From a virus, in IMG/VR virus record IMGVR_UViG_3300037418_000264, positions 4,297 through 68,296 of that record: DNA of 64,000 nucleotides; one strand, given 5' to 3'. Shown here one piece after another: positions 6,567 to 21,691 of the stretch. Position numbers and translations under genes: made by a program. Position 1 is the first letter of the stretch, and every line of letters begins with the position of its first letter. The notes beneath the pieces are model-generated. The model had not been told where the DNA came from and did not search any database. It saw only the letters and a list, made by a program, of their open reading frames with translations.

Positions 6567-7424
6567 ATGAAATATCCTGTTATTCCTGAGAAGTTCCTGA
6601 ATGACATGCATCGTTTTAACCTCTCCGGCACGGGAAGCTATTGTTTTTCCATTCTGACTCGTGACGATCTTACAGGTTACCAATTGCACGAACGTCCAAG
6701 TCAACCCTGCTTCGGTGAACTACGGAAGTACCGGGACACACATGGTATCGAGTGCACTCAGCCCGATGACCGTCGTCCCACCGACCTTCACCACCCCTTC
6801 CCCCATGGAACACCAGTGGCCGTCGGCGTCAAACTACAAAGCAACGTTTTCGGACCTGAAAGTCAGTCTTCTGAGAAGTCAATCCTCCTTCGGTGTATGT
6901 TCACGGAGGGTTCCCATTGGGAACGTGGCTTCAAGGACGTCGAATTCACTCTGAACAGCAAGAAGCAGATCGTTGGATTGATCGTCAAGAATACCAAGAT
7001 CGATCCTACCGTCCTCGTCAATGCCCTTAAAGTGGCTGTCAACACCGGACAGCCCGAGAATATCCTGTTCATCGAGTTGCATGAGGCTGGTTTGAGTGTG
7101 GATGATGCTCTCCTTGTGGCACGTCACTTCCCTCATTTCCACAGATATGGAATTGGTGACGTCGGTTCGCGGATATGGAATTTTCCACGTCTCGACTTGA
7201 AGCGTTGGAAGTCACGCGATCCTCATGACTTTACGAGAGGTACACTGTACGACCGCTTCGATTACTGCCGCAAGCAGGCAGAAAACATCTACAACGCTGT
7301 GGGTGCTGATCCTTTCGTCAACATCGGTACGGCAGTTCGTCAGAGATTCAACTACTACGGTTATCATGCCCACAAAGTACCTCTTCGTGAATTTGTCCAA
7401 GCTGCACAGGATGTCTTGAAGTGA
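6567..7424 (+). CDS. hypothetical protein heading the ligase cluster
   Basis: 285-aa ORF directly upstream of the COOH-NH2 ligase; no motif recognised. Confidence 0.75.
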   Translation: MKYPVIPEKFLNDMHRFNLSGTGSYCFSILTRDDLTGYQLHERPSQPCFGELRKYRDTHGIECTQPDDRRPTDLHHPFPHGTPVAVGVKLQSNVFGPESQSSEKSILLRCMFTEGSHWERGFKDVEFTLNSKKQIVGLIVKNTKIDPTVLVNALKVAVNTGQPENILFIELHEAGLSVDDALLVARHFPHFHRYGIGDVGSRIWNFPRLDLKRWKSRDPHDFTRGTLYDRFDYCRKQAENIYNAVGADPFVNIGTAVRQRFNYYGYHAHKVPLREFVQAAQDVLK

Positions 7425-7459
7425 TCGAAGATCACATGAGCGATAACGGAGTTATCTGA

Positions 7460-8155
7460 ATGAAACTGCTCTACGGTGCCGATCCCGAGCTTTTCGTCTA
7501 TGAACGTGGCCGGTATAAGTCGGCGCATGACCTGATACCCGGCACGAAAGAATGTCCTCATCCTGCCTCATATGGTGCCATTCAAGTCGATGGTGTCGCG
7601 GCGGAATTTAACATCTGGCCTGCGTCGAACTGTGATGAATTTGTCCGGAACATTCTAGAAGTCAAGAACTTCCTATCACGCGAAGTCCAGAAAAGGTTGC
7701 CGAATGCCGATTTGGTGGCTGATCCAACAGCAAGGTTCACCCCCGAGTACTTTGACTCTCTACCGTTTGAAACCAAGCTTTTGGGGTGTACCCCTGACTT
7801 TGATGCATACACGGGTGCAGAGAACGAACCGCCAGCAACCGACAAACCCATTAGGACTGGTGGGGGACATATTCATATTGGTTGGACACAAGACGTCGAT
7901 CCTTTTGACCACGAGCATTTCGCCTTGTGCCGCGAGTTGACCAAGCGTTTAGACGATCAACTCTACAATGCGTCTCTAGATTGGGACAGTGACCAAACAC
8001 GTCGAGAACTTTACGGCAAGATGGGTTCTTTTCGTCCGAAGTCATATGGTCTCGAATACCGACCTCTCTCAAATGCTTGGGTCGCTGACGAACGGTTGAT
8101 CGAACGTGTCTTCTATTTAACTGACGGTACCACTCGTCGATTTTTCAATCTTTAA
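7460..8155 (+). CDS. phiEco32-like COOH-NH2 ligase type 2 (glutamine-synthetase-fold amidoligase)
   Basis: GADPELF, QVDGVAAEFNI, GCTPDFDAY, RTGGGHIHIG, RRELYG and RPKSYGLEYRPLSNAW motifs. Confidence 0.88.
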   Translation: MKLLYGADPELFVYERGRYKSAHDLIPGTKECPHPASYGAIQVDGVAAEFNIWPASNCDEFVRNILEVKNFLSREVQKRLPNADLVADPTARFTPEYFDSLPFETKLLGCTPDFDAYTGAENEPPATDKPIRTGGGHIHIGWTQDVDPFDHEHFALCRELTKRLDDQLYNASLDWDSDQTRRELYGKMGSFRPKSYGLEYRPLSNAWVADERLIERVFYLTDGTTRRFFNL

Positions 8156-8187
8156 GAACTGAAATCGACAGAACTAGGAGATTTTTG

Positions 8188-8370
8188 ATGCGTGAGCATG
8201 AATTGAATAACAATTTCTACGACTCGTTTAATCTCAACGAACCTATCGACACCGATTGGGACGACTGGTCGTACGACGACTTCGACTATTGGCATGACCG
8301 GGATGACGACTACGGTGGTTCCTATGAAGAAGAGTACGAGGAAGACCTAGACGAAGAAGAGGACTGGTAA
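8188..8370 (+). CDS. small, extremely acidic protein
   Basis: AGGAG SD; Asp/Glu/aromatic-rich; ends EEEYEEDLDEEEDW. Confidence 0.65.
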   Translation: MREHELNNNFYDSFNLNEPIDTDWDDWSYDDFDYWHDRDDDYGGSYEEEYEEDLDEEEDW

Positions 8371-8585
8371 TGAAGTTTCCGAAAGTCCAACATAAGTTGC
8401 CTCCTTCATTTGAAGAAAAGATCGAGTGGGACAATGAACTCGAATGCCTGCTGTCCGCGCCTGTCGTCCCTTTCGGACAATACCGATACGTCAAGGAACA
8501 GCAGGGACTGTCCCGATACTCCTGTATACGACATATCAAAGAACAACGTGGAGGCGGTGGTTCTGCCGGGTCTGGTCGTGGATAA
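8370..8585 (+). CDS. hypothetical protein
   Basis: TAATG overlap with the upstream gene; also overlaps the next ORF, so uncertain. Confidence 0.4.
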   Translation: MKFPKVQHKLPPSFEEKIEWDNELECLLSAPVVPFGQYRYVKEQQGLSRYSCIRHIKEQRGGGGSAGSGRG

Positions 8586-8862
8586 AACAACTCACCCGGG
8601 TTATGGAGTCTGCTCTTGGCCTTTCAAAGTAGGCACAAAGATTAGGTCTATGTATTGGGATGGATTACATTCTTCGGATTACTATAAAGTTCTTAAATAC
8701 GAGGGCGATCGAGTATTCCTAGAGCAACATGGTGTCGAGTACCTCCAAAACTACGGTAAGAATGCTTTTGGTGACTTGAACGACTGGTACTACAGTTCTC
8801 CATTGGAAAGACAGAAGACCGGCTTCGGAAAGTTCGTAACGAGGATCGAAAAGAATGAATAA
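8578..8862 (+). CDS. GF[AG]K[FW]-tail family protein 1 (start uncertain; frame open from 8410)
   Basis: FKVGTKI near the N-terminus; C-terminus RQKTGFGKFVTRIEKNE. Confidence 0.7.
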   Translation: MDKTTHPGYGVCSWPFKVGTKIRSMYWDGLHSSDYYKVLKYEGDRVFLEQHGVEYLQNYGKNAFGDLNDWYYSSPLERQKTGFGKFVTRIEKNE

Positions 8863-9148
8863 GCTTGTCTATTTCGGACCGTCTGGTCTTGGTCAAGTCA
8901 CAATTCACGAAGGCGACTTTGTAGAGTTCAGTAATGGTATGAAGGGAGTTGCAATTTTCTCTCCACAATATTCTGGTGGCATGCCGATCACCTATCGTTG
9001 GGATGAATACGATCACTATCAGTTGTCTAACCCAGATAGTTGTCATTCTGGTTCAACGACTGGATTAGTTAAACATATTCCTGTGGAGTCAAGAATTCGT
9101 ACCCGTAGGGGCTTTGGCGCGTTTGTTCACCGTATTGAGTCGTCATGA
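8855..9148 (+). CDS. GF[AG]K[FW]-tail family protein 2
   Basis: IHEGDFV; C-terminus RTRRGFGAFVHRIESS. Confidence 0.75.
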   Translation: MNKLVYFGPSGLGQVTIHEGDFVEFSNGMKGVAIFSPQYSGGMPITYRWDEYDHYQLSNPDSCHSGSTTGLVKHIPVESRIRTRRGFGAFVHRIESS

Positions 9149-9411
9149 CATTCAGGGTTGGTGATGTCGTAAGCAGAATTGCAAACTACAGCCATGGTGG
9201 TGTCCATCCGGGGCAAACAGTCACTGTCGAGTGGATTTCTGACAATGGTCGGAATCTTCATTTCGTAGAAGACACCACATTGACGTCCGATGGAAGTCGT
9301 TATCTCCATAGTACACAAAACTACCATCTTGTTTCTAGTCGTAAAGAAAAGAAACTCTCTGGTTTCGGTAAGTTTATCAAGAACTTAGAGTCAAGAAAGG
9401 AAACTCAGTGA
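9145..9411 (+). CDS. GF[AG]K[FW]-tail family protein 3
   Basis: MTFRVGDVV; C-terminus KKLSGFGKFIKNLESRKETQ. Confidence 0.75.
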   Translation: MTFRVGDVVSRIANYSHGGVHPGQTVTVEWISDNGRNLHFVEDTTLTSDGSRYLHSTQNYHLVSSRKEKKLSGFGKFIKNLESRKETQ

Positions 9412-9833
9412 CCTCACTCGTACATCCTGTCTCATGGTGGAAGTCAAAAGAATTGACACAATCCGGTCGAGTGTCTTACGTCCTAGTAAGCAATGTCGCC
9501 GACGGTCTTGTCCATTTCTTTGCCCATGACGCCGGTCATCCAGAGGGGAAGCAAGCCTGTACTCGTCTGTTGAGCAAGTGGCACGAGAGGTACGAAGAGG
9601 TCTCGTTTGCTGAAGTTCCGGAGAATTGGGGACGACGTGCTAGCCCTTATGTTCCAAGAGCAGATCGCTTTAGAAATTATTACAACCCGTTCCTGTACTT
9701 GGAAGAACCTGACTTCGTCACTATCCATTCAACAGACTACGTTGGTTACGGAATGTACCGGCATAAGACCGAGATTCCTCCTAAGAAGAAATCTGGGTTC
9801 GCTAAATTTATCAACAAGGTTGAAGGCAAGTAA
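9408..9833 (+). CDS. GF[AG]K[FW]-tail family protein 4
   Basis: GTGA overlap; C-terminus KKKSGFAKFINKVEGK. Confidence 0.75.
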   Translation: MTSLVHPVSWWKSKELTQSGRVSYVLVSNVADGLVHFFAHDAGHPEGKQACTRLLSKWHERYEEVSFAEVPENWGRRASPYVPRADRFRNYYNPFLYLEEPDFVTIHSTDYVGYGMYRHKTEIPPKKKSGFAKFINKVEGK

Positions 9834-9834
9834 C

Positions 9835-10728
9835 ATGGTTTCTTACATTCTTCGTCGTCGTAAATTGGGTCGTACAAGTGCCCGCGAGATTGCTCGTGGC
9901 AGTAGTCAGGGTATCGTCGTCTATCGTAATGATGGAAGGAAGTATAACCACGTGACGAACAAGTACGAACGTATTCCGGGTGGTTTGCCTCATCAAGTCG
10001 ATTACGTCTTCCGTTGGGGTTGTACTTCCGTCGTCAACGGCAATGGTCAGGTTGTCAACAAGTCGGCTGCTATTTCTGCCGTAGGTGACAAGAGGGCTTT
10101 CCGTAAGATGACTGCCGATGCCGGTCTGGCACCAAAAACTTGGTTGTCTGTCAATGAGGAAGGCATTGTCTATCCAGTTGTTCTTCGTCGGAGTACCCAC
10201 GCACAAGGCCGGAATTTGCACGTATGCAATAACATCCAAGAACTTCGCTCCGCCGCTGCGAGGTACGGAGAAGGCAACTACTATATCTCGGCCTTAATCC
10301 AGAAAGTATCGGAGTATCGTGTGGCTGTCGTGTCGGGACGTGTATGTTGGGTAGCCAAGAAGACTCCATCCAATCCGAATGCCGTTGCTTGGAATGTCGC
10401 ACAAGGTGGTCGGTTTGATAACGTTCCGTGGTCTGATTGGCCTCTGAAGGCCGTCAAGGTTGCCATTCAGGCTTTCAAGATGACGGAACTAGACTTCGGC
10501 GGTGTCGATGTCATGCTGGATGCGCAAGGTAATGTTTTCGTCCTTGAAATCAATTCGGCACCTTCCCAGACTTCCCCGTATCGTCAGTCGTGCTTTACGA
10601 AGTGCTTTGACTACATCGTCCAGTTCGGTAAGGACCACATTCCTCTGACCGAAGAACCCGGTGGTTGGAAGAAGTTCATCCATCCTGCCCTAAGCAATGA
10701 GGCGATCCTTGCCCAATCTGAAGTATAA
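9835..10728 (+). CDS. ATP-grasp ligase (RimK/phiEco32-like)
   Basis: RWG, DK, YPVVLR, EYRVAV, WN..QGG, LDFGGVDV and VLEINSAP motifs; ATG 9835 follows the upstream stop. Confidence 0.88.
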   Translation: MVSYILRRRKLGRTSAREIARGSSQGIVVYRNDGRKYNHVTNKYERIPGGLPHQVDYVFRWGCTSVVNGNGQVVNKSAAISAVGDKRAFRKMTADAGLAPKTWLSVNEEGIVYPVVLRRSTHAQGRNLHVCNNIQELRSAAARYGEGNYYISALIQKVSEYRVAVVSGRVCWVAKKTPSNPNAVAWNVAQGGRFDNVPWSDWPLKAVKVAIQAFKMTELDFGGVDVMLDAQGNVFVLEINSAPSQTSPYRQSCFTKCFDYIVQFGKDHIPLTEEPGGWKKFIHPALSNEAILAQSEV

Positions 10729-10960
10729 AGTCGGGGATAAGTGTAAGTTGAACTGCCGTCCTTTTCTTGGTTACAATCATTCCTGTGGACTGGGAGACGG
10801 GAGCATCGTTACACTTCGCAAACCTAATACGAATAACTTCGGTTGGCTTGTCAACGAATTTCCCACTGTCGATTATTATTTTCTTGAGGAATGGTTGATA
10901 CCACTTGAGAAAACAAAATCCGGGTTCGCGAAGTGGATATCAAGACATGACTCAGTTTAA
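10697..10960 (+). CDS. GF[AG]K[FW]-tail family protein 5
   Basis: YKVGDKC; C-terminus KTKSGFAKWISRHDSV. Confidence 0.72.
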   Translation: MRRSLPNLKYKVGDKCKLNCRPFLGYNHSCGLGDGSIVTLRKPNTNNFGWLVNEFPTVDYYFLEEWLIPLEKTKSGFAKWISRHDSV

Positions 10961-11243
10961 AATAGGAGACCGAGTATCTTGGTCACCTCTACAAGAGTAC
11001 GGCCACGCATTCGGTGATGTCACGATAGAAGGATGTATATACGCAGTCTCTCCAATGTTGTCTTGGGAATGGTGGTTTATTGCGGACACACCACATGATT
11101 CACTGACCCACAACGCTCGCGGTCAGTGCCCAAAAGGAAAGCACTCTAGGTATGTCAAGAGTCGGGATTTGATTTTAATAGGTCCTAAACCCAAGTCTGG
11201 TTTTGCAAAATTTATTGAGAGGATAGAGAGTCCAAATGGCTAA
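10947..11243 (+). CDS. GF[AG]K[FW]-tail family protein 6
   Basis: MTQFKIGDRV; C-terminus KPKSGFAKFIERIESPNG. Confidence 0.75.
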   Translation: MTQFKIGDRVSWSPLQEYGHAFGDVTIEGCIYAVSPMLSWEWWFIADTPHDSLTHNARGQCPKGKHSRYVKSRDLILIGPKPKSGFAKFIERIESPNG

Positions 11244-11472
11244 AGACAATTTCGGTAAGTGGCAGGGTGGAGACAATTTCGTCTATTCCCCACAGTGGGC
11301 ATCCGGTCAGTCGCGAGACGGTTCGCAGGGTAAGAAGAAGTATGGTGACGCCGCTATGCGTAAGCGTACCCGCTTCAACCCCAATCCCACGGCTTGTTCA
11401 CATCCGGGTTGCCAGATCAAGGCCCGCAGCAAGCGTGACAAAGAAAACTATCTGAGGAGTAAGTCGGTATGA
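11236..11472 (+). CDS. small basic hypothetical protein
   Basis: Overlaps the upstream stop; Lys/Arg-rich; CSHPGC. Confidence 0.6.
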   Translation: MAKDNFGKWQGGDNFVYSPQWASGQSRDGSQGKKKYGDAAMRKRTRFNPNPTACSHPGCQIKARSKRDKENYLRSKSV

Positions 11473-11617
11473 GTGGAATGTACGTAATCGGTGGTGCAAT
11501 AGGGGGTGCTTGTACCGTCGCCATGATTACCCAACCCGGAGTTGGTTTTGGTGGTGGTCTCCTATTGGCGGCAGTGGTGGTCTTTATTTCGGCAATCATG
11601 GAATATAAAAAATAATC

Positions 11618-13312
11618 ATGACTGAGTTTGTTTTTAAATTTGAAACCAAAGAATTTTCAGTAGAAAAGACTTTTGATCCACGTTACAATCCTATTCTTAG
11701 GATGAACAATGATACTTCCGAAGATCGTAAGAAGATTGTCAAGGCAGTCTTTGAGGATAACGGAGAAGAAATTCTCTCGAATTGGGCCAAGCAATCTGTT
11801 CATGCTGGCCGGTGGATCGAGACTTTTAAATCCCGTTTTCCAAAGGAGAACTGGTACGGTCTCGCCCTATTCAAAGAGTTCTATTTGAACGCCTCAGACG
11901 TCCAGTTCTCTCAGAGGGCTGGTGGTACGTATTCGTGTCGGAAGTACGCCTCTCTGTCTGAACAATTTGTGACAGAGTTTTTGAATGTACTTTCTTCGGA
12001 CTATTCCTTTGCCAAGGCCCTGTCTCCTGTCTCGGGTGTCTTTGGAAGTTTCATAAACTTCGCAACAGGTAAAAACCCAATTACAGGCAGAAAACCTACT
12101 TATCTGTCTGACCTTCTTGAAGCAACAAAAGTAGGGGTTGACTATTCTATTGAAGCTACGACTATTGAAAACAGTCACGGTGTAACTGAACTATCAACCA
12201 TGAGGATTAAAATGCCACTTCTCTACGCCAATCGCAAGGAACTGTACAAGAAGTTTGAGTACAGCACCAATATCATTGATACTGTCGGTTGGTCCCGCCC
12301 GTCTGAAATCGTATCTGAGAGTCTATTTGGTGTCGAACTTGAAGTCTCAACAGACTACTCGGAAGCCAATATCATCGACGCCTTCCCTGAAATCTTCGCC
12401 ATCGTGAAGAAGGACAGCACTATTACCGGAACGAAGTCAAATATGGGTGAGATTGTCACCATTCCTGCCACCCTGCGTACTCATCGCAAGATGTGGATGA
12501 ACTTCTTCAAGAACCTGAACGAAGACATGTTCGATTGTCTGGACAAACATAATAACGGTATGCACGTCCATATCGACCGTGAGACGTTTGACAAAGATAC
12601 GATGCACCTGAAGAAGTTCTGCTGGTTCTTTGCCAATCCGGCTAACCACAAGTTCCTTCAGGACATTTCTGAACGTTCGCAGGACAGCATCAACAAGTTC
12701 GCCAAGTTCGTCTCTGCTCCGAAGATTTCTAAGACCGTCCCCGGTAAAACTGCCGCTGGTCTGTCCTTCGTCAACTCGGACCGTGCACTCCGTCAGTCGG
12801 ACAAACATACCGTCGTCAATCTCGGTAAGTCGGCAACCGTCGAAGTCCGTCTCTTTAAGGGTATCGTCAGCTATGCGAGTATCGTCAAAAACCTCGAATT
12901 CGTTGACTCTCTAGTCGAATTCAGCCGTTGGAACAATTATAAGGACATGAATTTATCTTCTTACATCAAGTGGCTCAAGAAGCTCCATACCACGAAATAC
13001 CGTGTTCTCAAGCTTATCATTGAGGAAATGGACCTCGATGCCATCCTGTTGGAAGCCGAAATCGAAAAGGTCATCAAGGGTTCGGGTCTTAGCACTTCGT
13101 CTATTGCTCTCGAATTGAACAAGATGAACCTGAACAACAAGTTCAGCAAGATTGCTATCAAGTTGTTCAACGGTACCTATGAGGCTTCCGGCAAGACTTT
13201 GGAAAAGGATGATCGTCCGGGTGCACAGTTTGTCGTCGTCGCAAAGGGTACTCGCTTTGCTAAGTACAACGACATCGCTTTTGCGATGCAGAACGGTACG
13301 TATCGCCGTTGA
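11618..13312 (+). CDS. putative amidoligase (Amidoligase_2-type COOH-NH2 ligase) with N-terminal extension
   Basis: FGVELEV, KKDSTI, GEIVTIP, GMHVHI, VNL...TVEVRLFKG motifs. Confidence 0.85.
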   Translation: MTEFVFKFETKEFSVEKTFDPRYNPILRMNNDTSEDRKKIVKAVFEDNGEEILSNWAKQSVHAGRWIETFKSRFPKENWYGLALFKEFYLNASDVQFSQRAGGTYSCRKYASLSEQFVTEFLNVLSSDYSFAKALSPVSGVFGSFINFATGKNPITGRKPTYLSDLLEATKVGVDYSIEATTIENSHGVTELSTMRIKMPLLYANRKELYKKFEYSTNIIDTVGWSRPSEIVSESLFGVELEVSTDYSEANIIDAFPEIFAIVKKDSTITGTKSNMGEIVTIPATLRTHRKMWMNFFKNLNEDMFDCLDKHNNGMHVHIDRETFDKDTMHLKKFCWFFANPANHKFLQDISERSQDSINKFAKFVSAPKISKTVPGKTAAGLSFVNSDRALRQSDKHTVVNLGKSATVEVRLFKGIVSYASIVKNLEFVDSLVEFSRWNNYKDMNLSSYIKWLKKLHTTKYRVLKLIIEEMDLDAILLEAEIEKVIKGSGLSTSSIALELNKMNLNNKFSKIAIKLFNGTYEASGKTLEKDDRPGAQFVVVAKGTRFAKYNDIAFAMQNGTYRR

Positions 13313-13432
13313 GAGTAAGTCTTGTTTTCTTTTCTGGCCAATTTTGGAGGAAATTAGAGCCTCCGTGGATTAAAGGCCGTAGACCAACTATTACCTACCA
13401 ACCCGTAAACTTGCCTTAGAAGGAACGAGATT

Positions 13433-14536
13433 TTGTGTCAATTAATTTGGAAGCCTGCGGGTTTTACAATCCCACGAAACCTGATCGAGAGTACCTGTAT
13501 CGTCAATCCTGACGGCTTCGGCCTGATGTATGGTACGGGATCGGTCGAGAATGGTGAACTTCAGACGTTCAAACTGTACAACGGTGACAACGACCCTGAC
13601 GTTCTATTCCCGATACTAGAAGGTCTACACGACATCAATGCTTTCATCCACTTCCGTTACAGGACCAAGGGTGTGATCAACGAGGCGTCGTGTCATCCGT
13701 TTGTCTGTTATGACAACAATGATCGTAAAGTCGCTTTGATGCATAACGGAACTCTGACGGGATATGGTACGACTGACAAAGTAGATAGTGAAGAGTTTGC
13801 TGAAAAGCTTGTAGGCCCTCTTTATAATCGCTTCCTTCTGTCTGGTGTTCGTCAACCGTTGTCTGACGGTTTCTTCCAAGAGATTGTTCAGAAGTTCATC
13901 GGATCGGAAAGTAAGATTGCTGTGGCCGACAATACCGGTGACTCTGTGATCTTCAACTATGCGAAGGGTGATGTCCGCAAGAACAAAATTGATCGTATAG
14001 ACACAGAGACGGGCGAGGCATTTGAGCAGGAAATTGAGTGGTGGGTGTCAAATACCTATTCATTCAATACTGGACACAGGAAGTCATATAACTACGGGAA
14101 CAGCCACGACTATTCTCAGTATCGTCACGGTAGCCAGAGTGGGGGTACCTCAACAGGAGGTCCCCCCCCTTTTCGTCAGAATGGGACAAGTTCATCAACG
14201 ACTACTCAGACAGAGACGACTATTCAGACTGGTGGTGGGAACAAGTCTACGGACAAGACGACTGGAAAGACCCCAGAGACAAGCGCTTCGGCCACACCGG
14301 AGACTAAGAAAAAGGAGACTGGTAAGGTGCCTCAAAGAACTATGGTCGCGAGCTACTGGCAAGATGTTCTTGGTCTCGATGATATTGATGAGCTTCGTGC
14401 GATGACGAGAGAAAATATCTCTGAGCTTGTCGATCTAGAACCAGAGAATGCCAAGTTGTTTATCAATGACCTATTGATTGAGTTGTTTGAGAACACACCT
14501 TGGGATGACGAAGTTGATGAGGATGAAGACGCATGA
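13433..14536 (+). CDS. class II (Ntn) glutamine amidotransferase with low-complexity C-terminal extension
   Basis: N-terminal Met-Cys (TTG start); NPDGFG, HFRYRTKG, CHPF, MHNG and DSE motifs. Confidence 0.88.
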   Translation: MCQLIWKPAGFTIPRNLIESTCIVNPDGFGLMYGTGSVENGELQTFKLYNGDNDPDVLFPILEGLHDINAFIHFRYRTKGVINEASCHPFVCYDNNDRKVALMHNGTLTGYGTTDKVDSEEFAEKLVGPLYNRFLLSGVRQPLSDGFFQEIVQKFIGSESKIAVADNTGDSVIFNYAKGDVRKNKIDRIDTETGEAFEQEIEWWVSNTYSFNTGHRKSYNYGNSHDYSQYRHGSQSGGTSTGGPPPFRQNGTSSSTTTQTETTIQTGGGNKSTDKTTGKTPETSASATPETKKKETGKVPQRTMVASYWQDVLGLDDIDELRAMTRENISELVDLEPENAKLFINDLLIELFENTPWDDEVDEDEDA

Positions 14537-14841
14537 GCGAGCCTAAAAAAGTAAATCGAGAATTCGCGTGTAAGTACCAAACACTAACCGAAGTCTTAGC
14601 TCATGCTGAGTGGGTCATTGAAAACAATCCCGGTATGACGCTTTCTGACTTCTGTTTTGACACATACCATCCAGACCCATACGAAGACTACGAGTATCCT
14701 TGTATGTCATACGAGACGCCTGAAACTCCCCCTGAAAAACAAAAGCGTCTAGCAGATGAAGCTAAAACTAAGGCAACTCGTGAAGAGTGGGAACGCAAAC
14801 AGTTTGAACAGTTGAAGGCGAAGTATGGCACAGATAACTAG
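14533..14841 (+). CDS. hypothetical protein
   Basis: ATGA overlap; charged helical C-terminus. Confidence 0.65.
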   Translation: MSEPKKVNREFACKYQTLTEVLAHAEWVIENNPGMTLSDFCFDTYHPDPYEDYEYPCMSYETPETPPEKQKRLADEAKTKATREEWERKQFEQLKAKYGTDN

Positions 14842-15430
14842 GCAGGGTGAGTTGGGTTTGTTCTTTTCGTTTGACTTCAAGAAAGTCTTGCAAGATCAGG
14901 CGAAATGGACAAGCGATATTCCTTATTTAAACCAATTTGAAAACCACTACGTCTTTGTCTACGGTACACTGAAACGTGGAATGAGACGGTCTGAAATCCT
15001 GACCAAGAACCAGCAGTGTAAGTTCTGTGGTGTGGCTGTCACAGAGTTCAATGAACTCGATCTTCTATTATTCGTCGATGAGAGTTCGGCGGAGGGTCAC
15101 TTCCCTGTCCTATTTGATCACGTATCGAAGTCAAGGAATGCAAAAGTCAAAGGAGAACTTTGGCTTGTTCCTACTGAGGTTCTTCTACAGCTCGACAAGA
15201 TCGAAGGCAACGGATATATGTTCGAACGTGAGTGGACATCTGTCTGGGTAGGCACAGAGAAGGTACATGCATTCTGTTACTATGGGATCAAGGAATTTTG
15301 GCGTTTCCAGAATTTGATTGACCTTCCTATCATGAAGTCAAATGGCAAGCAATACCACTTCTACCACGGAATGCAAGCAGACAAGTTGGCTTCGATGTGG
15401 AAGAATACAGGATCATTAGAGGCACATTAG
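14825..15430 (+). CDS. gamma-glutamylcyclotransferase (AIG2/GGCT-like)
   Basis: VFVYGTLKRG, VKGELW and LDKIEG motifs. Confidence 0.88.
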   Translation: MAQITRQGELGLFFSFDFKKVLQDQAKWTSDIPYLNQFENHYVFVYGTLKRGMRRSEILTKNQQCKFCGVAVTEFNELDLLLFVDESSAEGHFPVLFDHVSKSRNAKVKGELWLVPTEVLLQLDKIEGNGYMFEREWTSVWVGTEKVHAFCYYGIKEFWRFQNLIDLPIMKSNGKQYHFYHGMQADKLASMWKNTGSLEAH

Positions 15431-15438
15431 GGGTCTAA

Positions 15439-15720
15439 ATGGAAGACCATAACAAGTACATTAAAGTAGGTGACTTTGTCAAGGACCAGACATATGCCTG
15501 GGTCGATTGGTATAGAGTTCATAGTATTGGTAGTGATGACCTCCATGGCAAATACATTCTGATTGAGGTAATTCCTGATCATCCATCTGAGACTAGGTAT
15601 TACTTTAACGTCGAACCAGAACGTCATTTCTTGATCAAGGGTTTCACGGCAGGGAAGCGCGAAAGACCTAAGAGAGGGTTCGGTAAGTGGATTTCTAAGA
15701 TTGAGGGTGAAGATGCCTGA
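15439..15720 (+). CDS. GF[AG]K[FW]-tail family protein 7
   Basis: IKVGDFV; C-terminus RPKRGFGKWISKIEGEDA. Confidence 0.75.
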   Translation: MEDHNKYIKVGDFVKDQTYAWVDWYRVHSIGSDDLHGKYILIEVIPDHPSETRYYFNVEPERHFLIKGFTAGKRERPKRGFGKWISKIEGEDA

Positions 15721-15997
15721 ACCATATTTTGACGTAGGCGACGAAGTCGAAGTACTCCAGAACCATTCGGGTTGGTTCTGGTCAGGGATAGTTGCAGGGA
15801 CGAGAGGTACTGTTCGTGAAGCCAATATTCGTGATGGTGATGCTGAGTACCACATTGACTTCACCATAGGTGGAGACACTTGGGGACAGTACTACGAACA
15901 CCGTCTTGGAATTGTCAAGAGGGCCAAACCACTAGAAAAGAAGCTTTCTGGATTTGCTCGTTTTATCAAAAAGATTGACAACGAAGCGAAAACGTGA
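15713..15997 (+). CDS. GF[AG]K[FW]-tail family protein 8
   Basis: FDVGDEV; C-terminus KKLSGFARFIKKIDNEAKT. Confidence 0.75.
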   Translation: MPEPYFDVGDEVEVLQNHSGWFWSGIVAGTRGTVREANIRDGDAEYHIDFTIGGDTWGQYYEHRLGIVKRAKPLEKKLSGFARFIKKIDNEAKT

Positions 15998-16691: not shown

Positions 16692-16885
16692 TGTATACCC
16701 TTAAAGCATTTGCCTATGGTGCATCTTGGTTATTGGGAATAATTGCATTGGTTAGTCTATTGATCACAGCTTTTGCTTTCGCGCCAATGTGGTTCCTTTT
16801 TGTAGATGTAGCCTTCGTCTTTATTGTGTTCTCATTGGTAATAGGTTTTGAACACTATTCGGACTACGACAGCCACGGTACATGA
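16691..16885 (+). CDS. small membrane protein
   Basis: TGATG overlap; two hydrophobic helices. Confidence 0.55.
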   Translation: MYTLKAFAYGASWLLGIIALVSLLITAFAFAPMWFLFVDVAFVFIVFSLVIGFEHYSDYDSHGT

Positions 16886-18483
16886 GTAAATTTGCAGAGA
16901 CGGGTCTTCCCTGTCCTTGCGGAGCGTCGTCAGATGCCTATTCGATAGATCATGATGGTGACGGTTTTTGTTTCGGACAGTGTGGGGGCAGATATTTTAA
17001 GAATAAAGAGGAAGATGAGATAATTTTGTCAGAAGAAGAAGTCCTTGAAAAGGAACTGACGCCGAAGGGCAAAGAGACATATGGTTTTCAAGAAAATTAT
17101 CGTGGGATATACAAACGGACACAAGAGTTTTACGGTGTTCACACAAAGTTCATCGACGGCACTCCTTTCTCACTGGCGTATGTTTACCCCAACGAGTCGC
17201 TTAAAGTACGTATTCTACCCAAGAAATTTTATGCCACTGGTCCTATAGGTGAAGCCCACCTTTTTGGTGAAAACCTATTCTCTCCGGGTTCGTATGACTC
17301 TGTGACCATCGTAGAGGGCGAAGACGACGCCCTGAGCGCGTTCCAGATGCTTTGGAGCAGGAATGCTGTCGTCTCGGTTAAAAACGCTTCTACGGCCCTA
17401 GGAGACGTCAAAGCGCGAAGGGAGTATTTGAATGCGTTTAAGAAAATCATCCTCTGTCTGGACAACGACAAAGCAGGGCAAGAAGCGACCCGTCTTATTA
17501 CCAACTCGGGTTTATTTGACTACGAAAAAGTCTACCGTGTTACACTCAGCCGCCATAAAGACGCCCATGCTTATCTCGAAGCCGGGGAAGTCGAGGACTT
17601 TATTCGTGCATGGGATACGGCTAAACGCTATACCCCGGATGCAGTCATCAACTCTTTCGAAGATATTGAAGAGGCTCTTAAAGCAAAGAGCGATGGACCG
17701 ATAGGCTCATGGCCGTTTGCCGAACTAAATGACTGCCTCATAGGTCTCCACAAGTCTGAATTTATCCTGATCAAGGGATTAGAGAAGATCGGTAAGACGG
17801 AGGTCTGTCGTGCTATTGTTCATGAGTTTCTGCGTAATAGTCCTGACATCAACATTGCGACTATTTTCCTTGAAGAGTCTACAAGTACCACTATCAAAGG
17901 GGTTGCGACCTATGAACTCGAAACACCATGTGCCCTTCAACAATCCGGGGTGTCCGACGAAGATATCCTTAATGGATACAAGAAAGCACTCGGGGGTAAC
18001 TCGTCCAGACTGTACATCCACACGCACTTCTCGACAGAGGACGAGGGAGAGTTAATTGACAACATTCGTTTCTTGGTTACTGTGGCTGGCTGTAAACTTG
18101 TCCTTCTGGATAATCTTACCATGCTCACTACGGGCAGAGAAGACGAGGACGAACGACTTAGGATTGATCGAATTATCCATCGTCTCCGTGATCTTGTTAA
18201 CGAGCTTGATTTCTGTCTTGTTCTCGTTGCCCACGTTAACGACAACGGTCAGACACGCGGTTCTCGGTTGCCTGACAAGTTGGCTAACACGATAGTCCAT
18301 CTAGAACGTAATAAGATGGCTGCCAATGTCCAAGAACGTAATTCTCTGAAGTTCTTTATCGAGGGTGCCCGTGCACAAGGGACTAAGACTGGTCCTGCTG
18401 GTTTTGCATTCTTTGATCCTATTACCTTCAAACTCCGTGATGTTAAACCCGAAGACGAGATTATTCTTCCAGAGGTAGACTGA
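16882..18483 (+). CDS. T7 gp4-like primase-helicase
   Basis: N-terminal zinc finger (CPC..SSDA...C...C), TOPRIM motifs VEGEDDA and LDNDKAG, Walker A GLEKIGKT, LLDNL, AH and RGS. Confidence 0.92.
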   Translation: MSKFAETGLPCPCGASSDAYSIDHDGDGFCFGQCGGRYFKNKEEDEIILSEEEVLEKELTPKGKETYGFQENYRGIYKRTQEFYGVHTKFIDGTPFSLAYVYPNESLKVRILPKKFYATGPIGEAHLFGENLFSPGSYDSVTIVEGEDDALSAFQMLWSRNAVVSVKNASTALGDVKARREYLNAFKKIILCLDNDKAGQEATRLITNSGLFDYEKVYRVTLSRHKDAHAYLEAGEVEDFIRAWDTAKRYTPDAVINSFEDIEEALKAKSDGPIGSWPFAELNDCLIGLHKSEFILIKGLEKIGKTEVCRAIVHEFLRNSPDINIATIFLEESTSTTIKGVATYELETPCALQQSGVSDEDILNGYKKALGGNSSRLYIHTHFSTEDEGELIDNIRFLVTVAGCKLVLLDNLTMLTTGREDEDERLRIDRIIHRLRDLVNELDFCLVLVAHVNDNGQTRGSRLPDKLANTIVHLERNKMAANVQERNSLKFFIEGARAQGTKTGPAGFAFFDPITFKLRDVKPEDEIILPEVD

Positions 18484-18731
18484 TGTCTTTCTATACTAAC
18501 CATTCCAACGGCCTTCCTATTAAAGAGGGTGATTTAGTAGAAAGAATTGATAAGGGTGTTTTGTCTCCTATAGGTTTTAGGACAAGAGTTTATTCCGCTC
18601 ATAACAGATTTAGCATAACCCATCACACAGGTCTCGAAGACATGTATATTGCAGACTACTGGAACTTTATTAGTAGGTACGAGAGGGAAAAATCCCGATT
18701 TGGTAAGTTCTTGGAGAAACACCAACTATGA
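18483..18731 (+). CDS. GF[AG]K[FW]-tail family protein 9
   Basis: IKEGDLV; C-terminus REKSRFGKFLEKHQL. Confidence 0.7.
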   Translation: MSFYTNHSNGLPIKEGDLVERIDKGVLSPIGFRTRVYSAHNRFSITHHTGLEDMYIADYWNFISRYEREKSRFGKFLEKHQL

Positions 18732-18737
18732 AAGTCA

Positions 18738-19004
18738 TTGGTGACTGATATGATCTATCGCGATGGTCAAGAAGTACGGAATGGTGACACGTGGAGAACG
18801 TATGCCAATGAACAGTATACGTACACGGCGATTGATGAGGGGTTTAGGTTTGTATGGCGGTGTATCCAAGTGCCGACGTCTTATGGAACTATGGAACCCT
18901 CTGCGTGTTCTAATGCCTATATTTTAATTCGTCGTAAAGAGTCCCCAAAGTCTGGTTTCGGTAAGTTTATTAAACGTATTGAAGGTTCAAATGCCAAAAT
19001 TTGA
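18738..19004 (+). CDS. GF[AG]K[FW]-tail family protein 10
   Basis: VRNGDTW; C-terminus SPKSGFGKFIKRIEGSNAKI. Confidence 0.72.
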   Translation: MVTDMIYRDGQEVRNGDTWRTYANEQYTYTAIDEGFRFVWRCIQVPTSYGTMEPSACSNAYILIRRKESPKSGFGKFIKRIEGSNAKI

Positions 19005-19317
19005 AGTAGGTGATCGCGTACGCATCGTGGCGTCTTATGAAAGTTCATCAAACGATGAAGGCACGGTTACTTCAATTGAGTATTGGGCCGAGGACGATGA
19101 TGTCTCCGAATACGTAGTTACTTATGACGTCCCTCGTAATAATCCTTATTGGGCACCACAGGACTCGGACGAAGAGATAATCTCTGACTGGACAGAACCA
19201 CAATACCACTACGAAGGTTATTATACCGACGGTGAGCTCGAACTAATAAGTCGTCAGAGAGTGGCCCGTAAAAAGACGGGTTTCAGTGCATGGATTAGAA
19301 AACAAGAAAATGGTTGA
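18991..19317 (+). CDS. GF[AG]K[FW]-tail family protein 11
   Basis: MPKFEVGDRV; C-terminus RKKTGFSAWIRKQENG. Confidence 0.75.
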   Translation: MPKFEVGDRVRIVASYESSSNDEGTVTSIEYWAEDDDVSEYVVTYDVPRNNPYWAPQDSDEEIISDWTEPQYHYEGYYTDGELELISRQRVARKKTGFSAWIRKQENG

Positions 19318-19585
19318 CCTTTACCAATCAATAGGAAAAAGGGTTTATTTAATTAACTCTTATAGTGGTGTCGCAGATAAAGTACCCGGCATTCTTGTCG
19401 AAGCAACTGTTTTCCGGGCAGATGAGCATACTCCCGGATTACATGATGGTGGTGGTCGAGGCCCTAAAGGTTACTATTGGTTTGTCACATCTGACATGAT
19501 CATTCTAAGAGAGTCTTTGGTCAGAAAAACTACGGGCTTTGCTAAGTTCATTAAGCGCATCGAACAAAAACAGTTAAATGTTTGA
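19310..19585 (+). CDS. GF[AG]K[FW]-tail family protein 12
   Basis: SIGKRV; C-terminus RKTTGFAKFIKRIEQKQLNV. Confidence 0.75.
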   Translation: MVDLYQSIGKRVYLINSYSGVADKVPGILVEATVFRADEHTPGLHDGGGRGPKGYYWFVTSDMIILRESLVRKTTGFAKFIKRIEQKQLNV

Positions 19586-19807: not shown

Positions 19808-21691
19808 ATGGCTAAATACATATTCGACATAGAAACTGACGGCTTAAATCCGACTGTCATATGGTGTTTAATTCTAAAGGACATTGATACAAGTGAAGTC
19901 TTTATTTACGCAAGTGGTCTCGGATACCCTAGCATTTTTGAAGGTGTTCAGCGCCTTGCTGATGCTGATTATTTCGTTTTTCATAATGGTATCTGGTTTG
20001 ACTTACCAGTACTCAACCGTCTGGCAGACGCCAATCTCGATCCAACAAGAGCCATTGATACCCTAGTTTGTTCTAGATTGTTCAACTCTTGGGATTACTC
20101 CCAACACGGTCTTGAAGTATGGGGCGAGCGGTTAGGCTTTCCCAAGACACATTTCAACGACTGGTCCAAATTGACACAAGAAATGATTGACTACTGTGTC
20201 AATGATGTCGAGGTCAATTACAGACTGTGGAAACTGTTTGAACCCCTTGTCTACTCTCCTGAGTGGAAAGGTCCTCTTAGGATAGAGCATGACACGGCGA
20301 TTTACTATCGTGAAATGCATGAGAACGGATTTCCGTTTGACATAGAAAAGGCCAAGAAACTTCGTGTTGATATCGAAGTCGAACGAGAAAAACTGAATGT
20401 CATCATTCAGGAACAATTTCCTCCTAAATCGAAACTCCTAAAAGAGATTTATCCAAAGGTAACAAAAGATGGGCGCTTATCAAAGGTCAACTTTAAATGG
20501 CTTGAAGGCATACCTGAAGAGCGAGGGTTTCAACCTAACGCCCCATTTTCTCTTATTGAATGGGAAACCTTCAATCCAGCTTCTCCCTCCCAAGTCATTG
20601 AAAGAATGTGGGAATTTGGGTGGCAACCTACCGAAAAAACCAAAGGACACATAGTTGCAGAACGAGAACACGATTGGGAAAAGCTTGAAAAGTTCCAACG
20701 AACAGGATGGAAGGTCTCAGAAGAAAACCTCAATACCCTCCCACCTGATGCCCCTTCCGCAGCCCATTCGTTGGTCCGATGGCTCCTACTTAATTCCCGC
20801 GTCACTACGCTCACTACTTGGATCGAAGCGTACAGAGAGGCTACCGGCTGTATTCATGGCGAGGTTAGACACATCGGAACTTGGACCCACAGGGCAAGCC
20901 ACAAAAACCCAAACACCGGAAATATCACACGAGTTAACTTCGATGGAGACAAAAGAGTCCTTCGAGGGGAAGCTGGTGCCTTCGGTGCCGACATGCGGGA
21001 GCTTTGGACTTGTCTTCCCGGATGGAAGCTGGTCGGTTGCGATGCAGAAGGTATCCAACTAAGGGTACTCGCACACTACATGGAAGATGAAGCCTTTACG
21101 AAGGCTCTTGTCTCGGGCAGTTCCAAAGACGGAACCGATGCCCATACGATGAACATGAGGAAGTTAGGACATGTCTGTAAAAACCGAGACGTCGCGAAGA
21201 CTTTTATCTACTCATGGGTACTGGGGGCGTCTGCCACCAAAACAGCGCAAGTTCTTAATTGTAGAGTGGGAGAGGCAGTTGTCGCGCGGAAATCTTTTCT
21301 TGAAGGATATCCCGGACTCAAACGACTAAAAGAAGAAATTATCCCCGACGATGCCGCTAGAGGCTACTTCGTGGGATTTGATGGACGGAAAGTCTTCTGT
21401 GACTCCGAACATCTTATGTTGGCCGGTTATCTTCAGAATGGTGAAAACCTTATAATGAAGTACGCCGAGCGATTGTGGTACAACAAGCTTAAAGAGCTTC
21501 GCATACCATTTAAGTTGGCTAATATGGTTCATGATGAATGGCAAACACAAGTCCTCGATGAGGATGGAATGCCTGAAATTGCTGGACAGGAAATGGCCAA
21601 TTCGATTGTACAGGCGGGTATAGACCTTGGTGTCAAATGCCCGCAAGCCGGAACACCCAAGTATGGGTACAACTGGCTTCAAACGCATTAA
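19808..21691 (+). CDS. family A (T7-like) DNA polymerase with 3'-5' exonuclease
   Basis: Exo I FDIETDG, Exo II HNGIWFD, Exo III YCVNDV; motif A CDAEGIQLR, motif B AKTFIYSWVLG, motif C VHDEWQ. Confidence 0.95.
   Translation: MAKYIFDIETDGLNPTVIWCLILKDIDTSEVFIYASGLGYPSIFEGVQRLADADYFVFHNGIWFDLPVLNRLADANLDPTRAIDTLVCSRLFNSWDYSQHGLEVWGERLGFPKTHFNDWSKLTQEMIDYCVNDVEVNYRLWKLFEPLVYSPEWKGPLRIEHDTAIYYREMHENGFPFDIEKAKKLRVDIEVEREKLNVIIQEQFPPKSKLLKEIYPKVTKDGRLSKVNFKWLEGIPEERGFQPNAPFSLIEWETFNPASPSQVIERMWEFGWQPTEKTKGHIVAEREHDWEKLEKFQRTGWKVSEENLNTLPPDAPSAAHSLVRWLLLNSRVTTLTTWIEAYREATGCIHGEVRHIGTWTHRASHKNPNTGNITRVNFDGDKRVLRGEAGAFGADMRELWTCLPGWKLVGCDAEGIQLRVLAHYMEDEAFTKALVSGSSKDGTDAHTMNMRKLGHVCKNRDVAKTFIYSWVLGASATKTAQVLNCRVGEAVVARKSFLEGYPGLKRLKEEIIPDDAARGYFVGFDGRKVFCDSEHLMLAGYLQNGENLIMKYAERLWYNKLKELRIPFKLANMVHDEWQTQVLDEDGMPEIAGQEMANSIVQAGIDLGVKCPQAGTPKYGYNWLQTH

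Follow-up and report, generated by a model that had tools for sequence, protein, structure and literature searches.

A known ligase cassette and twelve small proteins that share a C-terminal tag, possibly a docking peptide

What do a dozen small proteins with a common C-terminal tag do among and beside the genes of a peptide-ligase cassette? The window analysed here, a stretch of 64,000 nucleotides from the IMG/VR virus record IMGVR_UViG_3300037418_000264, carries both, and all of the features described below lie on its + strand.

The enzyme cassette and its neighbours

A preliminary description had placed five enzymes in one co-directional run, and all five were found. The first is a COOH-NH2 ligase type 2 of the phiEco32-like kind (7460..8155), matching PF14395 at 28.9 bits (cut-off 25) and phrog_3815 at 5e-63. 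Its relatives occur in 319 phage records, it retains the invariant acidic, His and Arg columns (alignment A4), and it is 34-52% identical to the ligases of isolates. The RimK-like ATP-grasp ligase (9835..10728; PF08443, 4.5e-9; phrog_2599, 1.4e-24) has D225, E238 and N240 in columns that are invariant in an alignment with 48 homologues (A7). The third enzyme is a 564-aa long form of Amidoligase_2 (11618..13312), which matches phrog_16683 at 9.5e-16 and, over residues 278-432, PF12224 at 21.3 bits, below the cut-off of 22. Its catalytic domain spans approximately residues 236-460, preceded by an N-terminal extension of about 235 aa and followed by a C-terminal one of about 100 aa, and its close relatives were found only in DNA that bears the window's tag (L002, 98%; L295, 43%; L300, 53%). 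The class-II (Ntn) glutamine amidotransferase (GATase, 13433..14536) starts M-C and is weakly assigned, at 19.1 bits against a cut-off of 23, with PF13230 and PF13522 both scoring under their cut-offs. Residues 1-154 match an annotated glutamine amidotransferase of phage phiM6 (E 6e-14), and in tblastn the amidotransferases of loci L009, L011, L012 and L014 match from residue 1 to residues 127-212; after the Ntn part come a linker of low complexity and a C-terminal domain that is acidic. The fifth is a gamma-glutamyl(amine) cyclotransferase of the AIG2/GGACT family (GGCT, 14825..15430; PF06094, 4.6e-13; phrog_2520). The cassette is intact and probably active. A primase/helicase gene (16882..18483; Toprim and DnaB_C domains) lies downstream of all five, and a family-A DNA polymerase gene (19808..21691; PF00476, 3.3e-27) marks the downstream limit of the zone of tagged genes.

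Several further ORFs belong to this region. Directly upstream of the COOH-NH2 ligase is a conserved 285-aa protein (6567..7424) for which Pfam and PHROG searches gave no match; tblastn found homologues at the equivalent position in L002 (90%) and in L011, L012 and L014 (31-36%). A very acidic 61-aa ORF ending ..EEDLDEEEDW (8185..8370) and a 102-aa ORF (14533..14841) have no family match, the latter being 98% identical to its copy in L002. Beside the long amidoligase stand a basic 78-aa ORF (11236..11472), conserved in L002 (99%) and in the metagenome fragment L300 (61%), and a hydrophobic 48-aa ORF (11469..11615), without a Pfam match, whose composition suggests that it is probably a membrane peptide.

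Iyer 2009 is reportedly the founding paper on this cassette. In the portions of the literature used here, the cassette is known from phiEco32-, LUZ24-, RIO-1- and CW02-type podoviruses, in agreement with the preliminary description, which had traced the enzyme set to phiEco32-like phages, and the role proposed for it is the making or breaking of gamma-glutamyl or unusual peptide bonds, or peptidoglycan modification (PMC5498523, PMC4819975, PMC10580990, PMC6256558). The corresponding portions of three of these papers cite Iyer 2009 and Hardies 2013 on the podoviral cassette and do not mention tag families, though phages CW02 and phiM6 have them (PMC5498523, PMC4819975, PMC6256558). The enzyme set is the published cassette; the tag family is the new part. 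As in phiEco32, LUZ24, PA11, RIO-1, PSA-HP1, CW02 and phiM6, the window has the same five families, co-directional and with a primase/helicase directly downstream. It differs from the podoviral cassette in its shuffled gene order, with the ATP-grasp before the amidoligase, in the long form of the amidoligase, in an amidotransferase with a C-terminal half of its own, and in the eight tagged small genes that separate its genes.

Twelve small proteins with a common tag

As the preliminary description had stated, six tagged genes are placed among the enzymes and two come after the GGCT gene. Protein 1 (8584..8862, ending ..KTGFGKFVTRIEKNE) has an uncertain start and a 96-aa orthologue in L002. It is followed by protein 2 (8855..9148, ..RRGFGAFVHRIESS), protein 3 (9145..9411, ..LSGFGKFIKNLESRKETQ), itself a representative (P0010) in a library of 1.84 billion proteins, and the 141-aa protein 4 (9408..9833, ..KSGFAKFINKVEGK), which has relatives P0006 and P0008. 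Beyond the ATP-grasp are protein 5 (10697..10960, ..KSGFAKWISRHDSV) and protein 6 (10905..11243, ..KSGFAKFIERIESPNG), the start of which may be 10947, and after the GGCT gene come proteins 7 (15439..15720, ..KRGFGKWISKIEGEDA) and 8 (15701..15997, ..LSGFARFIKKIDNEAKT). Four further tagged genes at 18483-19585, outside the region first described, bring the family to 12. These encode protein 9 (18483..18731, ..KSRFGKFLEKHQL / ..SRFGKFLEKHQL; P0011 in the library), whose tag is degenerate, and proteins 10 (18738..19004, ..KSGFGKFIKRIEGSNAKI), 11 (18979..19317, ..KTGFSAWIRKQENG) and 12 (19286..19585, ..TTGFAKFIKRIEQKQLNV).

The tag has the consensus E-[RK]-K-K-[ST]-G-F-[GA]-K-[FW]-I-x-[RK]-[IV]-E and is predicted to form a basic amphipathic helix, with hydrophobic positions +1, +4, +5 and +8 on one face and a hydrophobic moment of 0.6-0.8. 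A six-frame search with the pattern G[FW][GAS].[FW][IV] gave 11 matches, all of them on the + strand and at most 20 residues from a stop, compared with means of 0.46 matches overall and 0.05 near a stop in shuffled controls (n=200). Codons vary at synonymous sites among the copies, so the tag is conserved as a peptide and not as DNA. Among 57 distinct instances, the F is present in all 57 and the G in 55; the conserved Lys and near-terminal Glu on which the preliminary description had relied occur in 47 and 44, so that neither is invariant. The C-terminus lies 10-18 residues beyond the G of the tag, and what follows the tag varies in number and kind of residues.

Outside the tag the proteins are divergent, the barrels sharing a mutual identity of only 16-30%. 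An AlphaFold2 model of protein 8, built with 87 sequences, has five strands followed by a helix at residues 81-93 that coincides with the tag, at a moderate mean pLDDT of 71.7. Foldseek matched the model to chromo, Tudor, KOW and SH3-like barrels at E 9e-3 or weaker, with none at E<=1e-3. Each tagged protein is predicted to consist of a small SH3/Tudor-like barrel, a basic linker and the conserved amphipathic helix. A profile search of the 1.84 billion proteins yielded 64 representatives at E<=1e-3, 35 of them 73-135 aa long, and the tag was present in all 30 that were retrieved.

Tag families in other cassette-bearing phages

The window's layout recurs in other cassette phages, uncultured ones included, as analogous multigene families of small barrel proteins with lineage-specific tags, their genes dispersed over the cassette and the replication operon. 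Salinivibrio phage CW02 has 11 ORFs ending ..P-x-[LI]-L-E-E-N-[VI], and Sinorhizobium phage phiM6 has 14 ending ..DY[KR][VI]DQEP[LM]E[DE]EE[CT]L. In the IMG/VR loci the family endings are ..YDPxQ..[DE]DD[VI] (L011, L012 and L014), ..DKxYE[ED]LYT (L037) and ..PEEDIWL (L051). All of these tags are strictly C-terminal and most are acidic. Tagged genes are interleaved with enzyme genes in the window, L002, L011, L012, L014, L037 and CW02, and in L011, L012, L014 and CW02 they also occupy the interval between primase and polymerase. In phiM6 and L051 they are grouped in tandem ahead of the cassette and are not interleaved with it. That related phages keep this layout but have very different tags suggests a protein-addressing system, one that would be previously undescribed.

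The frequency of such families was determined by counting ORFs with a common tail 4-mer within 10 kb on each side of 80 cassette loci and in 240 control loci (2.4 Mb), comprising 120 random loci, 40 20-kb pieces from 12 random viral genomes and 80 DNA-polymerase-related loci. At least six such ORFs were found at 6 of the 80 cassette loci, or 6-7 if L002 is counted, where the 4-mer test recovers four tagged ORFs and the regular expression nine. None of the 240 control loci had a tag family or reached even five ORFs, an enrichment with p ~2e-4 by Fisher's exact test against controls that are modest and were drawn without lineage matching. Every larger DNA piece with the window's own tag likewise carries genes of the cassette or of the neighbouring replication region. 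The co-occurrence of tag and ligases, which the preliminary description had proposed to check, is therefore positive for the window's tag and for the other kinds alike. All of the tag-bearing lineages came from inspection of cassette loci, however, and with controls of this kind the association could belong to the phage group or the early-gene region and not to the enzymes.

Conversely, no tag family was present within 10 kb on either side of 73 of the 80 cassette loci (>90%), nor in the whole genomes of LUZ24 and oyster phage T2S2, nor in the stretches searched from phiEco32 (39 kb) and Vibrio phage 1.293.O (20 kb). Since most cassettes occur without tag families, the tagged proteins are ruled out as the general substrate of the cassette. 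Across phages with different tags or none, the ligase remains 50-58% and the ATP-grasp 46-54% identical.

What the tag may do

The reading we favour, tentatively and as a little short of an even chance, is that the 12 barrel paralogues beside the known cassette use their shared tag as a docking peptide, or address, for one partner. The divergent barrels would give each paralogue a target of its own, and the common tag would bring all of them to the same partner. Because the layout recurs in other cassette-bearing lineages, the tag system appears tied to such phages, and one of the cassette's components may be the partner. Against this docking reading, no partner of the tag was found, tag chemistry differs by lineage (basic and helical in the window, acidic and strictly terminal elsewhere), and 4 of the 12 members are encoded outside the cassette. 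The tags of different lineages may not act by one common mechanism.

Short C-terminal peptides are familiar both as docking motifs, as in the tail of SSB or the acidic C-termini of T7 gp2.5 and gp4, and as the membrane-targeting helices of MinD and FtsA. The phage tags resemble these as short conserved peptides on unrelated or divergent bodies, the peptide being an amphipathic helix in the window and, in the sister lineages, an acidic tail that ends in hydrophobic residues. What sets them apart is that one phage bears its tag on 12 paralogues and that the tag changes from lineage to lineage. The Pup/PafA/Dop system also pairs a small protein whose C-terminal element is conserved with ligases of the glutamine-synthetase-like carboxylate-amine superfamily, to which we take the ligases encoded near the tagged genes to belong. 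However, Pup is one disordered modifier, whereas the tagged proteins are 12 paralogues, predicted to be folded barrels, that lack a terminal GG[QE], and no Mpa or proteasome partner was seen.

An unlikely alternative to docking is that the cassette uses the tagged proteins as substrates or adaptors: its ligases would attach gamma-glutamyl or peptide moieties to the tag or ligate through it, and GGCT and the Ntn enzyme would remove them. Such a write/erase system would be in keeping with the enrichment of tag families in cassette-bearing phages, the interleaving of tagged genes with enzyme genes and the restriction of the long Amidoligase_2 to DNA with the window's tag. GGACT-family enzymes cleave gamma-glutamyl-epsilon-lysine, and RimK- and TTL-type ATP-grasp enzymes act on acidic C-terminal tails, as in ribosomal protein S6 and tubulin; the window has a RimK-like ATP-grasp, and the tags of the sister phages are tails of that kind. 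The window's own tag, by contrast, is basic and 10-18 residues from a variable C-terminus, a poor fit to RimK- or Pup-type C-terminal ligation, and its Lys and Glu are not invariant. The many cassettes without tag families, and ligases and ATP-grasps that stay so similar whatever the tag, argue in the same direction. The ATP-grasp tail GGWKKFIH, previously read as an echo of the tag, proved to be a conserved feature of the enzyme subfamily: in a 47%-identical homologue, encoded by a phage whose tag is entirely different, the corresponding residues are EYLRYIHP.

We regard it as very unlikely that the window's tag is a membrane-targeting helix of the MinD/FtsA kind, holding the barrels against the inner membrane from the cytoplasmic side, for instance close to where cell-wall precursors are made. 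The predicted helix does coincide with the tag, which has a hydrophobic moment of 0.6-0.8, an F/F/I/I face and a flanking basic K/R run, and presumably resembles the MinD tail; the hydrophobic 48-aa ORF also lies inside the cluster. Yet the acidic tags of CW02, phiM6, L011, L012, L014, L037 and L051 cannot bind membranes in such fashion, and the near-invariance of G-F and the conserved E at +9 exceed the needs of a generic membrane helix. Quite unlikely, too, is the reading in which tags and enzymes are functionally unconnected. The tagged genes would then be a lineage-specific expansion of accessory genes of the early or middle class, occupying gaps all through the replication operon, with a tag for self-assembly, barrel-tag binding between members, or turnover. 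The four genes between primase and polymerase, with their counterparts elsewhere, and the separate tandem blocks of phiM6 and L051 would suit this, as would rapid turnover, the tagged members of the window and L002 differing in number and identity while the enzymes are 77-99% identical. But at least five tag types all occur in cassette-bearing phages, and none in the control loci. Moreover, in seven Rhizobium/Rhizobiales genomes the host histidyl-tRNA synthetase (HisRS) has a C-terminal extension identical to the YDP-type acidic tag, and that tag also terminates two small non-barrel proteins, in G007 and L312, which is hard to explain if a tag serves only its own family; tags carry meaning beyond the barrel proteins.

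Tagged proteins of the window and their relatives

Across the whole genome, 11 ORFs match a regular expression for the tag. All are on the + strand with the tag 12-16 residues before the stop, where 0.05 such matches are expected in shuffled sequence; a twelfth ORF (18483-18731) carries a degenerate copy. The preliminary description placed eight tagged copies inside or just after the cassette, which is borne out by the ORF positions, and the remaining four lie between the primase/helicase and polymerase genes. The bodies of the tagged proteins have a mutual identity of only 16-30% and share an N-terminal strand, x-V-G-D-x-V. Their last residues are E, S, Q, K, V, G, A, T, I, G, V and L. The Gly, Phe, Ala and Lys codons vary among the tag copies, which places selection at the level of the peptide, and this variation at synonymous sites rules out a DNA-level repeat such as a promoter, terminator or recombination site.

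An AlphaFold2 model of the tagged protein at 15713-15994, built from an alignment of 87 family members, has five strands and a final helix (residues 81-93) coinciding exactly with the tag, at a mean pLDDT of 71.7. The best Foldseek matches in the PDB are small barrels of the chromo, Tudor, KOW, YorP and ribosomal kinds (E 9e-3 to 6e-2, TM 0.35-0.56), and none reaches E<=1e-3. With all matches at E 9e-3 or weaker, an SH3/Tudor/chromo-like small beta-barrel is likely as the fold class of the tagged proteins, short of proof.

Searching 5.8 billion proteins by a word-based method gave 8 relatives, every one on a contig of 52-68.5 kb. A full search with the profile, over 1.84 billion representatives, gave 64 proteins at E<=1e-3, 35 of them of 73-135 aa, with the tag at the end in all 30 that were fetched. 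The other 29, as given in the match table, are long and have 2-7 matched stretches each; among them P0015, P0016, P0019 and P0020 are up to 2909 aa long and have 5-7 profile stretches. A weak search for a long protein bearing the window's tag found none, its only match being a 580-aa tandem-barrel protein without the tag (P0009, E 0.56). P0009 holds several tandem copies of the K-V-G-D-type barrel domain.

The consensus over 57 distinct instances is E-[RK]-K-K-[ST]-G-F-[GA]-K-[FW]-I-x-[RK]-[IV]-E. The F is present in 57/57, the G in 55/57, the K at +3 in 47/57 and the E at +9 in 44/57; the G lies 10-18 residues from the C-terminus in 55 of the 57. At the DNA level, a strict pattern for the tag identified one IMG/VR relative, L002, which shares the cassette (enzyme identities to the window of 77-99%) and has 9 tagged genes, a partly different set. 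Several short metagenome contigs were also matched. Tagged genes lie beside a ligase in L298, the long amidoligase in L295 and L300, a GGCT in L290, and primase and polymerase in L289 and L291. The pattern matches in L288, L294, L296 and L297 were rejected as internal or chance matches.

Cassette enzymes and their genome setting

The source record is 68,296 bp long with 127-bp direct terminal repeats and is rated complete; the window is its bases 4297-68296. Early, metabolic and replication genes occupy a + strand arm (~2.8 to 31 kb) that includes dCMP deaminase, a Toprim+DnaB_C primase/helicase, a family-A DNA polymerase and ribonucleotide reductase. Genes for the large terminase, the portal and the major head protein lie on the - strand arm, together with tail or lysis genes. 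No near-identical relatives of the window at the DNA level were found among isolate phages.

The cassette is a single co-directional block adjoining the primase/helicase in the early-middle arm. Its COOH-NH2 ligase type 2 (7460-8155, +) scores 28.9 bits with PF14395 (cut-off 25) and matches phrog_3815 at 5e-63. The RimK-like ATP-grasp (9835-10728, +) matches PF08443 (4.5e-9, 36.6 bits against a cut-off of 21), and its D/E/N columns are invariant in 48 homologues; we take these to be the catalytic ATP/Mg residues. A probable Amidoligase_2 domain is encoded at 11618-13312 (+), where the match to PF12224 covers residues 278-432 of a 564-aa protein and falls slightly short of the cut-off (21.3 bits against 22); N-terminal and C-terminal extensions of ~235 and ~100 aa have no family match. 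This long amidoligase also matches phrog_16683 (9.5e-16), a family without known function, and tblastn against phages returned only 3 matches, all weak. The class-II (Ntn) amidotransferase (13433-14536, +) is a weak assignment, with two Pfam scores below their cut-offs (19.1 against 23 and 18.3 against 27). The class has an N-terminal Cys, and the protein begins M-C; tblastn matches a phiM6 gene annotated as amidotransferase (E 6e-14), and the N-terminal 127-212 residues match amidotransferases of phiM6 and three uncultured phages. The AIG2/GGACT gamma-glutamyl cyclotransferase (14825-15430, +) matches PF06094 at 4.6e-13 (50.2 bits against a cut-off of 22.8).

The same set lies upstream of the primase/helicase in oyster phage T2S2, Salinivibrio phage CW02, phiEco32, LUZ24, Sinorhizobium phage phiM6 and Vibrio phage 1.293.O, and ligase relatives are present in 319 isolate phage records. 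The enzymes of the window are an additional member of an already known cassette. A ligase homologue (G029:C1:61949-62626, -; E 5.5e-43) was also seen on a 98-kb fragment rated 23% complete, one of 18 viral records drawn at random, so the ligase is present in much larger phages too. The proposal for the role of the cassette reportedly comes from Iyer et al. 2009. Hundreds of podoviruses have been noted to carry the cassette, whose function has been a proposal since 2009, and a literature search for experiments from 2015 onward found none. Its role is treated as a proposal in PMC5498523, PMC4819975, PMC6256558 and PMC10580990.

Tag families in other cassette phages, and a tag in Rhizobium

Small-gene families with other shared tails were found in two cultured cassette phages. 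In CW02, 11 small genes among the enzyme genes have a similar first strand and end ..L-x-P-x-[LI]-L-E-E-N-[VILA]. In phiM6, 14 tandem genes have the C-terminus ..DY[KR][VI]DQEP[LM]E[DE]EE[CT]L. We surveyed IMG/VR loci around ligase homologues (the best 80 of at least 496 confirmed relatives), scanning each locus for any 4-residue word common to the last 18 residues of several same-strand ORFs. Six of the 80 loci had 6-11 ORFs sharing a word. The shared tails are ..PYDPSQEPDDEDDV in L011, ..YDPTQMGDREDDI in L012, ..LPYDPKQQPDEEDDI in L014, ..DKxYE[ED]LYT in L037 and ..PEEDIWL in L051; the sixth, L077, is apparently CW02 itself. By the same scan L002 has 4 such ORFs. When the same ORFs were scanned at an internal position, one locus had 5 and none had more. 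The maximum was 3 in 120 random IMG/VR loci (1.03 Mb), 4 in 40 pieces of ~20 kb from 12 random viral genomes (0.71 Mb), equal to the internal control, and 3 in 80 loci around polymerase relatives (0.66 Mb), of which only 2 contain a cassette gene. The difference between 6/80 and 0/240 has p = 2e-4 by Fisher's exact test, with L011, L012 and L014 forming one clade and with controls that are short and unmatched by phage lineage.

Comparison by hhalign of the barrel families of different phages gave weak N-terminal matches only (probabilities 18% and 4%), too little to show common descent. The eight tandem small ORFs ending ..PEEDIWL (L051:4510-7023, +) have N-termini without the V-G-D start, and the tag principle may therefore be independent of any one fold. 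In phiEco32, a phage otherwise without a tag family, three adjacent 65-69-aa paralogues, gp71, gp70 and gp69 (L005:30045-30660, +), end ..YY or ..HY and form a small tail-sharing family.

The pattern of a phage placing one C-terminal address on 10-15 divergent small proteins holds for at least five different tags. No description of phage tag families of this kind was found in the openly accessible main texts searched. The families offer a concrete, testable handle on the function of the cassette, and two tag-bearing phages are in culture with tractable hosts: CW02 (Salinivibrio costicola) and phiM6 (Sinorhizobium meliloti 1021).

The YDP-type tag of L011, L012 and L014 extends beyond the barrel family. 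The pattern YDPxQ..D.[DE]DD[VI]-stop matched 16 IMG/VR contigs. Of the eight that are at least 90% complete, seven have the ligase, four by the Pfam model and three by a close-relative profile. One of these seven ligase matches, in the complete 68-kb tag-bearing phage G004 (G004:C1:28584-29339, +), contains 2 TGA and 1 TAA stops; a broken gene, an assembly error or a match overrunning the gene end are possible explanations. The eighth contig is a 45-kb provirus, G007, without the ligase, in which a non-barrel 59-aa ORF (G007:C1:44891-45070, -) ends in the tag; this ORF is at the edge of the provirus record.

In genome contigs the YDP pattern matched 14 stretches. In seven the match is the 3' end of the gene for histidyl-tRNA synthetase (HisRS) of Rhizobium/Rhizobiales genomes (L309:6038-7750, +; L305:40-2229, +; and HisRS ends in L303, L306, L308, L313 and L315), identified by Pfam for two of the seven and by the common C-terminal sequence for the other five. 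One is a 72-aa non-barrel ORF in a Rhizobium genome (L312:3814-4032, +), and the rest are on MAG contigs bearing tandem tagged small ORFs. The HisRS proteins have an extra tail of 18-20 residues that ends ..PYDP[ATN]Q[AIS]GDTDDD[IV], and an uncultured 67-kb cassette phage (G009/L099) has these same 13 residues as its tag. The identical tag on this host synthetase suggests that hosts participate in the tag code. In each of the three genomes searched the motif occurs once. The tagged hisS has an ordinary neighbourhood, hisS-hisZ-hisG-groEL, with no prophage beside it. Among 30 same-family HisRS genes read, the tail is present only in the query genome's own and missing from the other 29, so that the tail is an addition made sporadically by hosts. 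None of 401 genomes searched had the phiM6-type tag; these were from the family of genome record G035.

Readings of the tag

The reading that fits best is that the tag family comprises adaptors or effectors sharing a docking peptide. Conservation is far tighter in the tag than in the body. The tag forms a separate secondary-structure element at the chain end, changes from one phage lineage to the next in the manner of a co-evolving ligand, and in one lineage is also found on unrelated proteins. The receptor would be one of the cassette enzymes, a different protein of the phage or a protein of the host. The C-terminal halves of the amidotransferases, compared as candidate receptors, differ from lineage to lineage in no interpretable pattern. 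Several observations limit any link between the tags and the enzymes. No tag family lies within 10 kb either side in 73 of the 80 cassette loci, and none was found in the whole genomes of LUZ24 and T2S2, in 39 kb of phiEco32 or in 20 kb of Vibrio phage 1.293.O. The window's ligase is 50-58% identical to ligases of phages with other tags or none, and ATP-grasps of the window's subtype (46-54% identical) occur in five tag-free loci. The long amidoligase is the sole enzyme that tracks the window's tag, its close relatives having been found only in tag-bearing DNA (L002, L295, L300), an association that spans two lineages at most. An echo of the tag had also been seen in the ATP-grasp tail; this tail is conserved in the homologue from L037, whose phage has the tag YE[ED]LYT, and the echo is rejected, being a feature of the enzyme subfamily.

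The tags might instead be handles for the cassette, with the ligases extending or ligating via the tag, the GGCT and Ntn enzymes reversing the reaction, and the small barrel adaptors each holding a different host target. We consider this unlikely. It would amount to a phage-encoded protein-tagging code, likened to Pup or the tubulin code, and the Rhizobium HisRS would then be either recruited from the host into the code or a decoy by which the host counters it. The earlier proposal that the tagged proteins are ligase substrates is possible and would be the more interesting outcome; for the basic, non-terminal tag of the window it is not favoured by the present evidence. Pup is one small modifier ending GG[QE] that works with PafA and Dop, whereas none of the 12 C-termini in the window ends GGQ or GGE, the tagged protein is modelled as a folded barrel, and no Pfam match to PafA or Dop was found. 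Substrates of RimK and TTL have conserved acidic C-terminal acceptor residues, whereas the C-terminal residues in the window vary. The tag shares with MinD/FtsA-type membrane-targeting helices a C-terminal amphipathic basic helix, predicted at residues 81-93, and its hydrophobic moment is 0.6-0.8. Two other protein ends in the window were recorded. A very acidic 61-aa ORF (8185-8370, +) has the C-terminus ..EEDLDEEEDW, and the C-terminus of the amidotransferase (14350-14536, +) reads ..WDDEVDEDEDA. Both resemble the acidic tags of sister phages.
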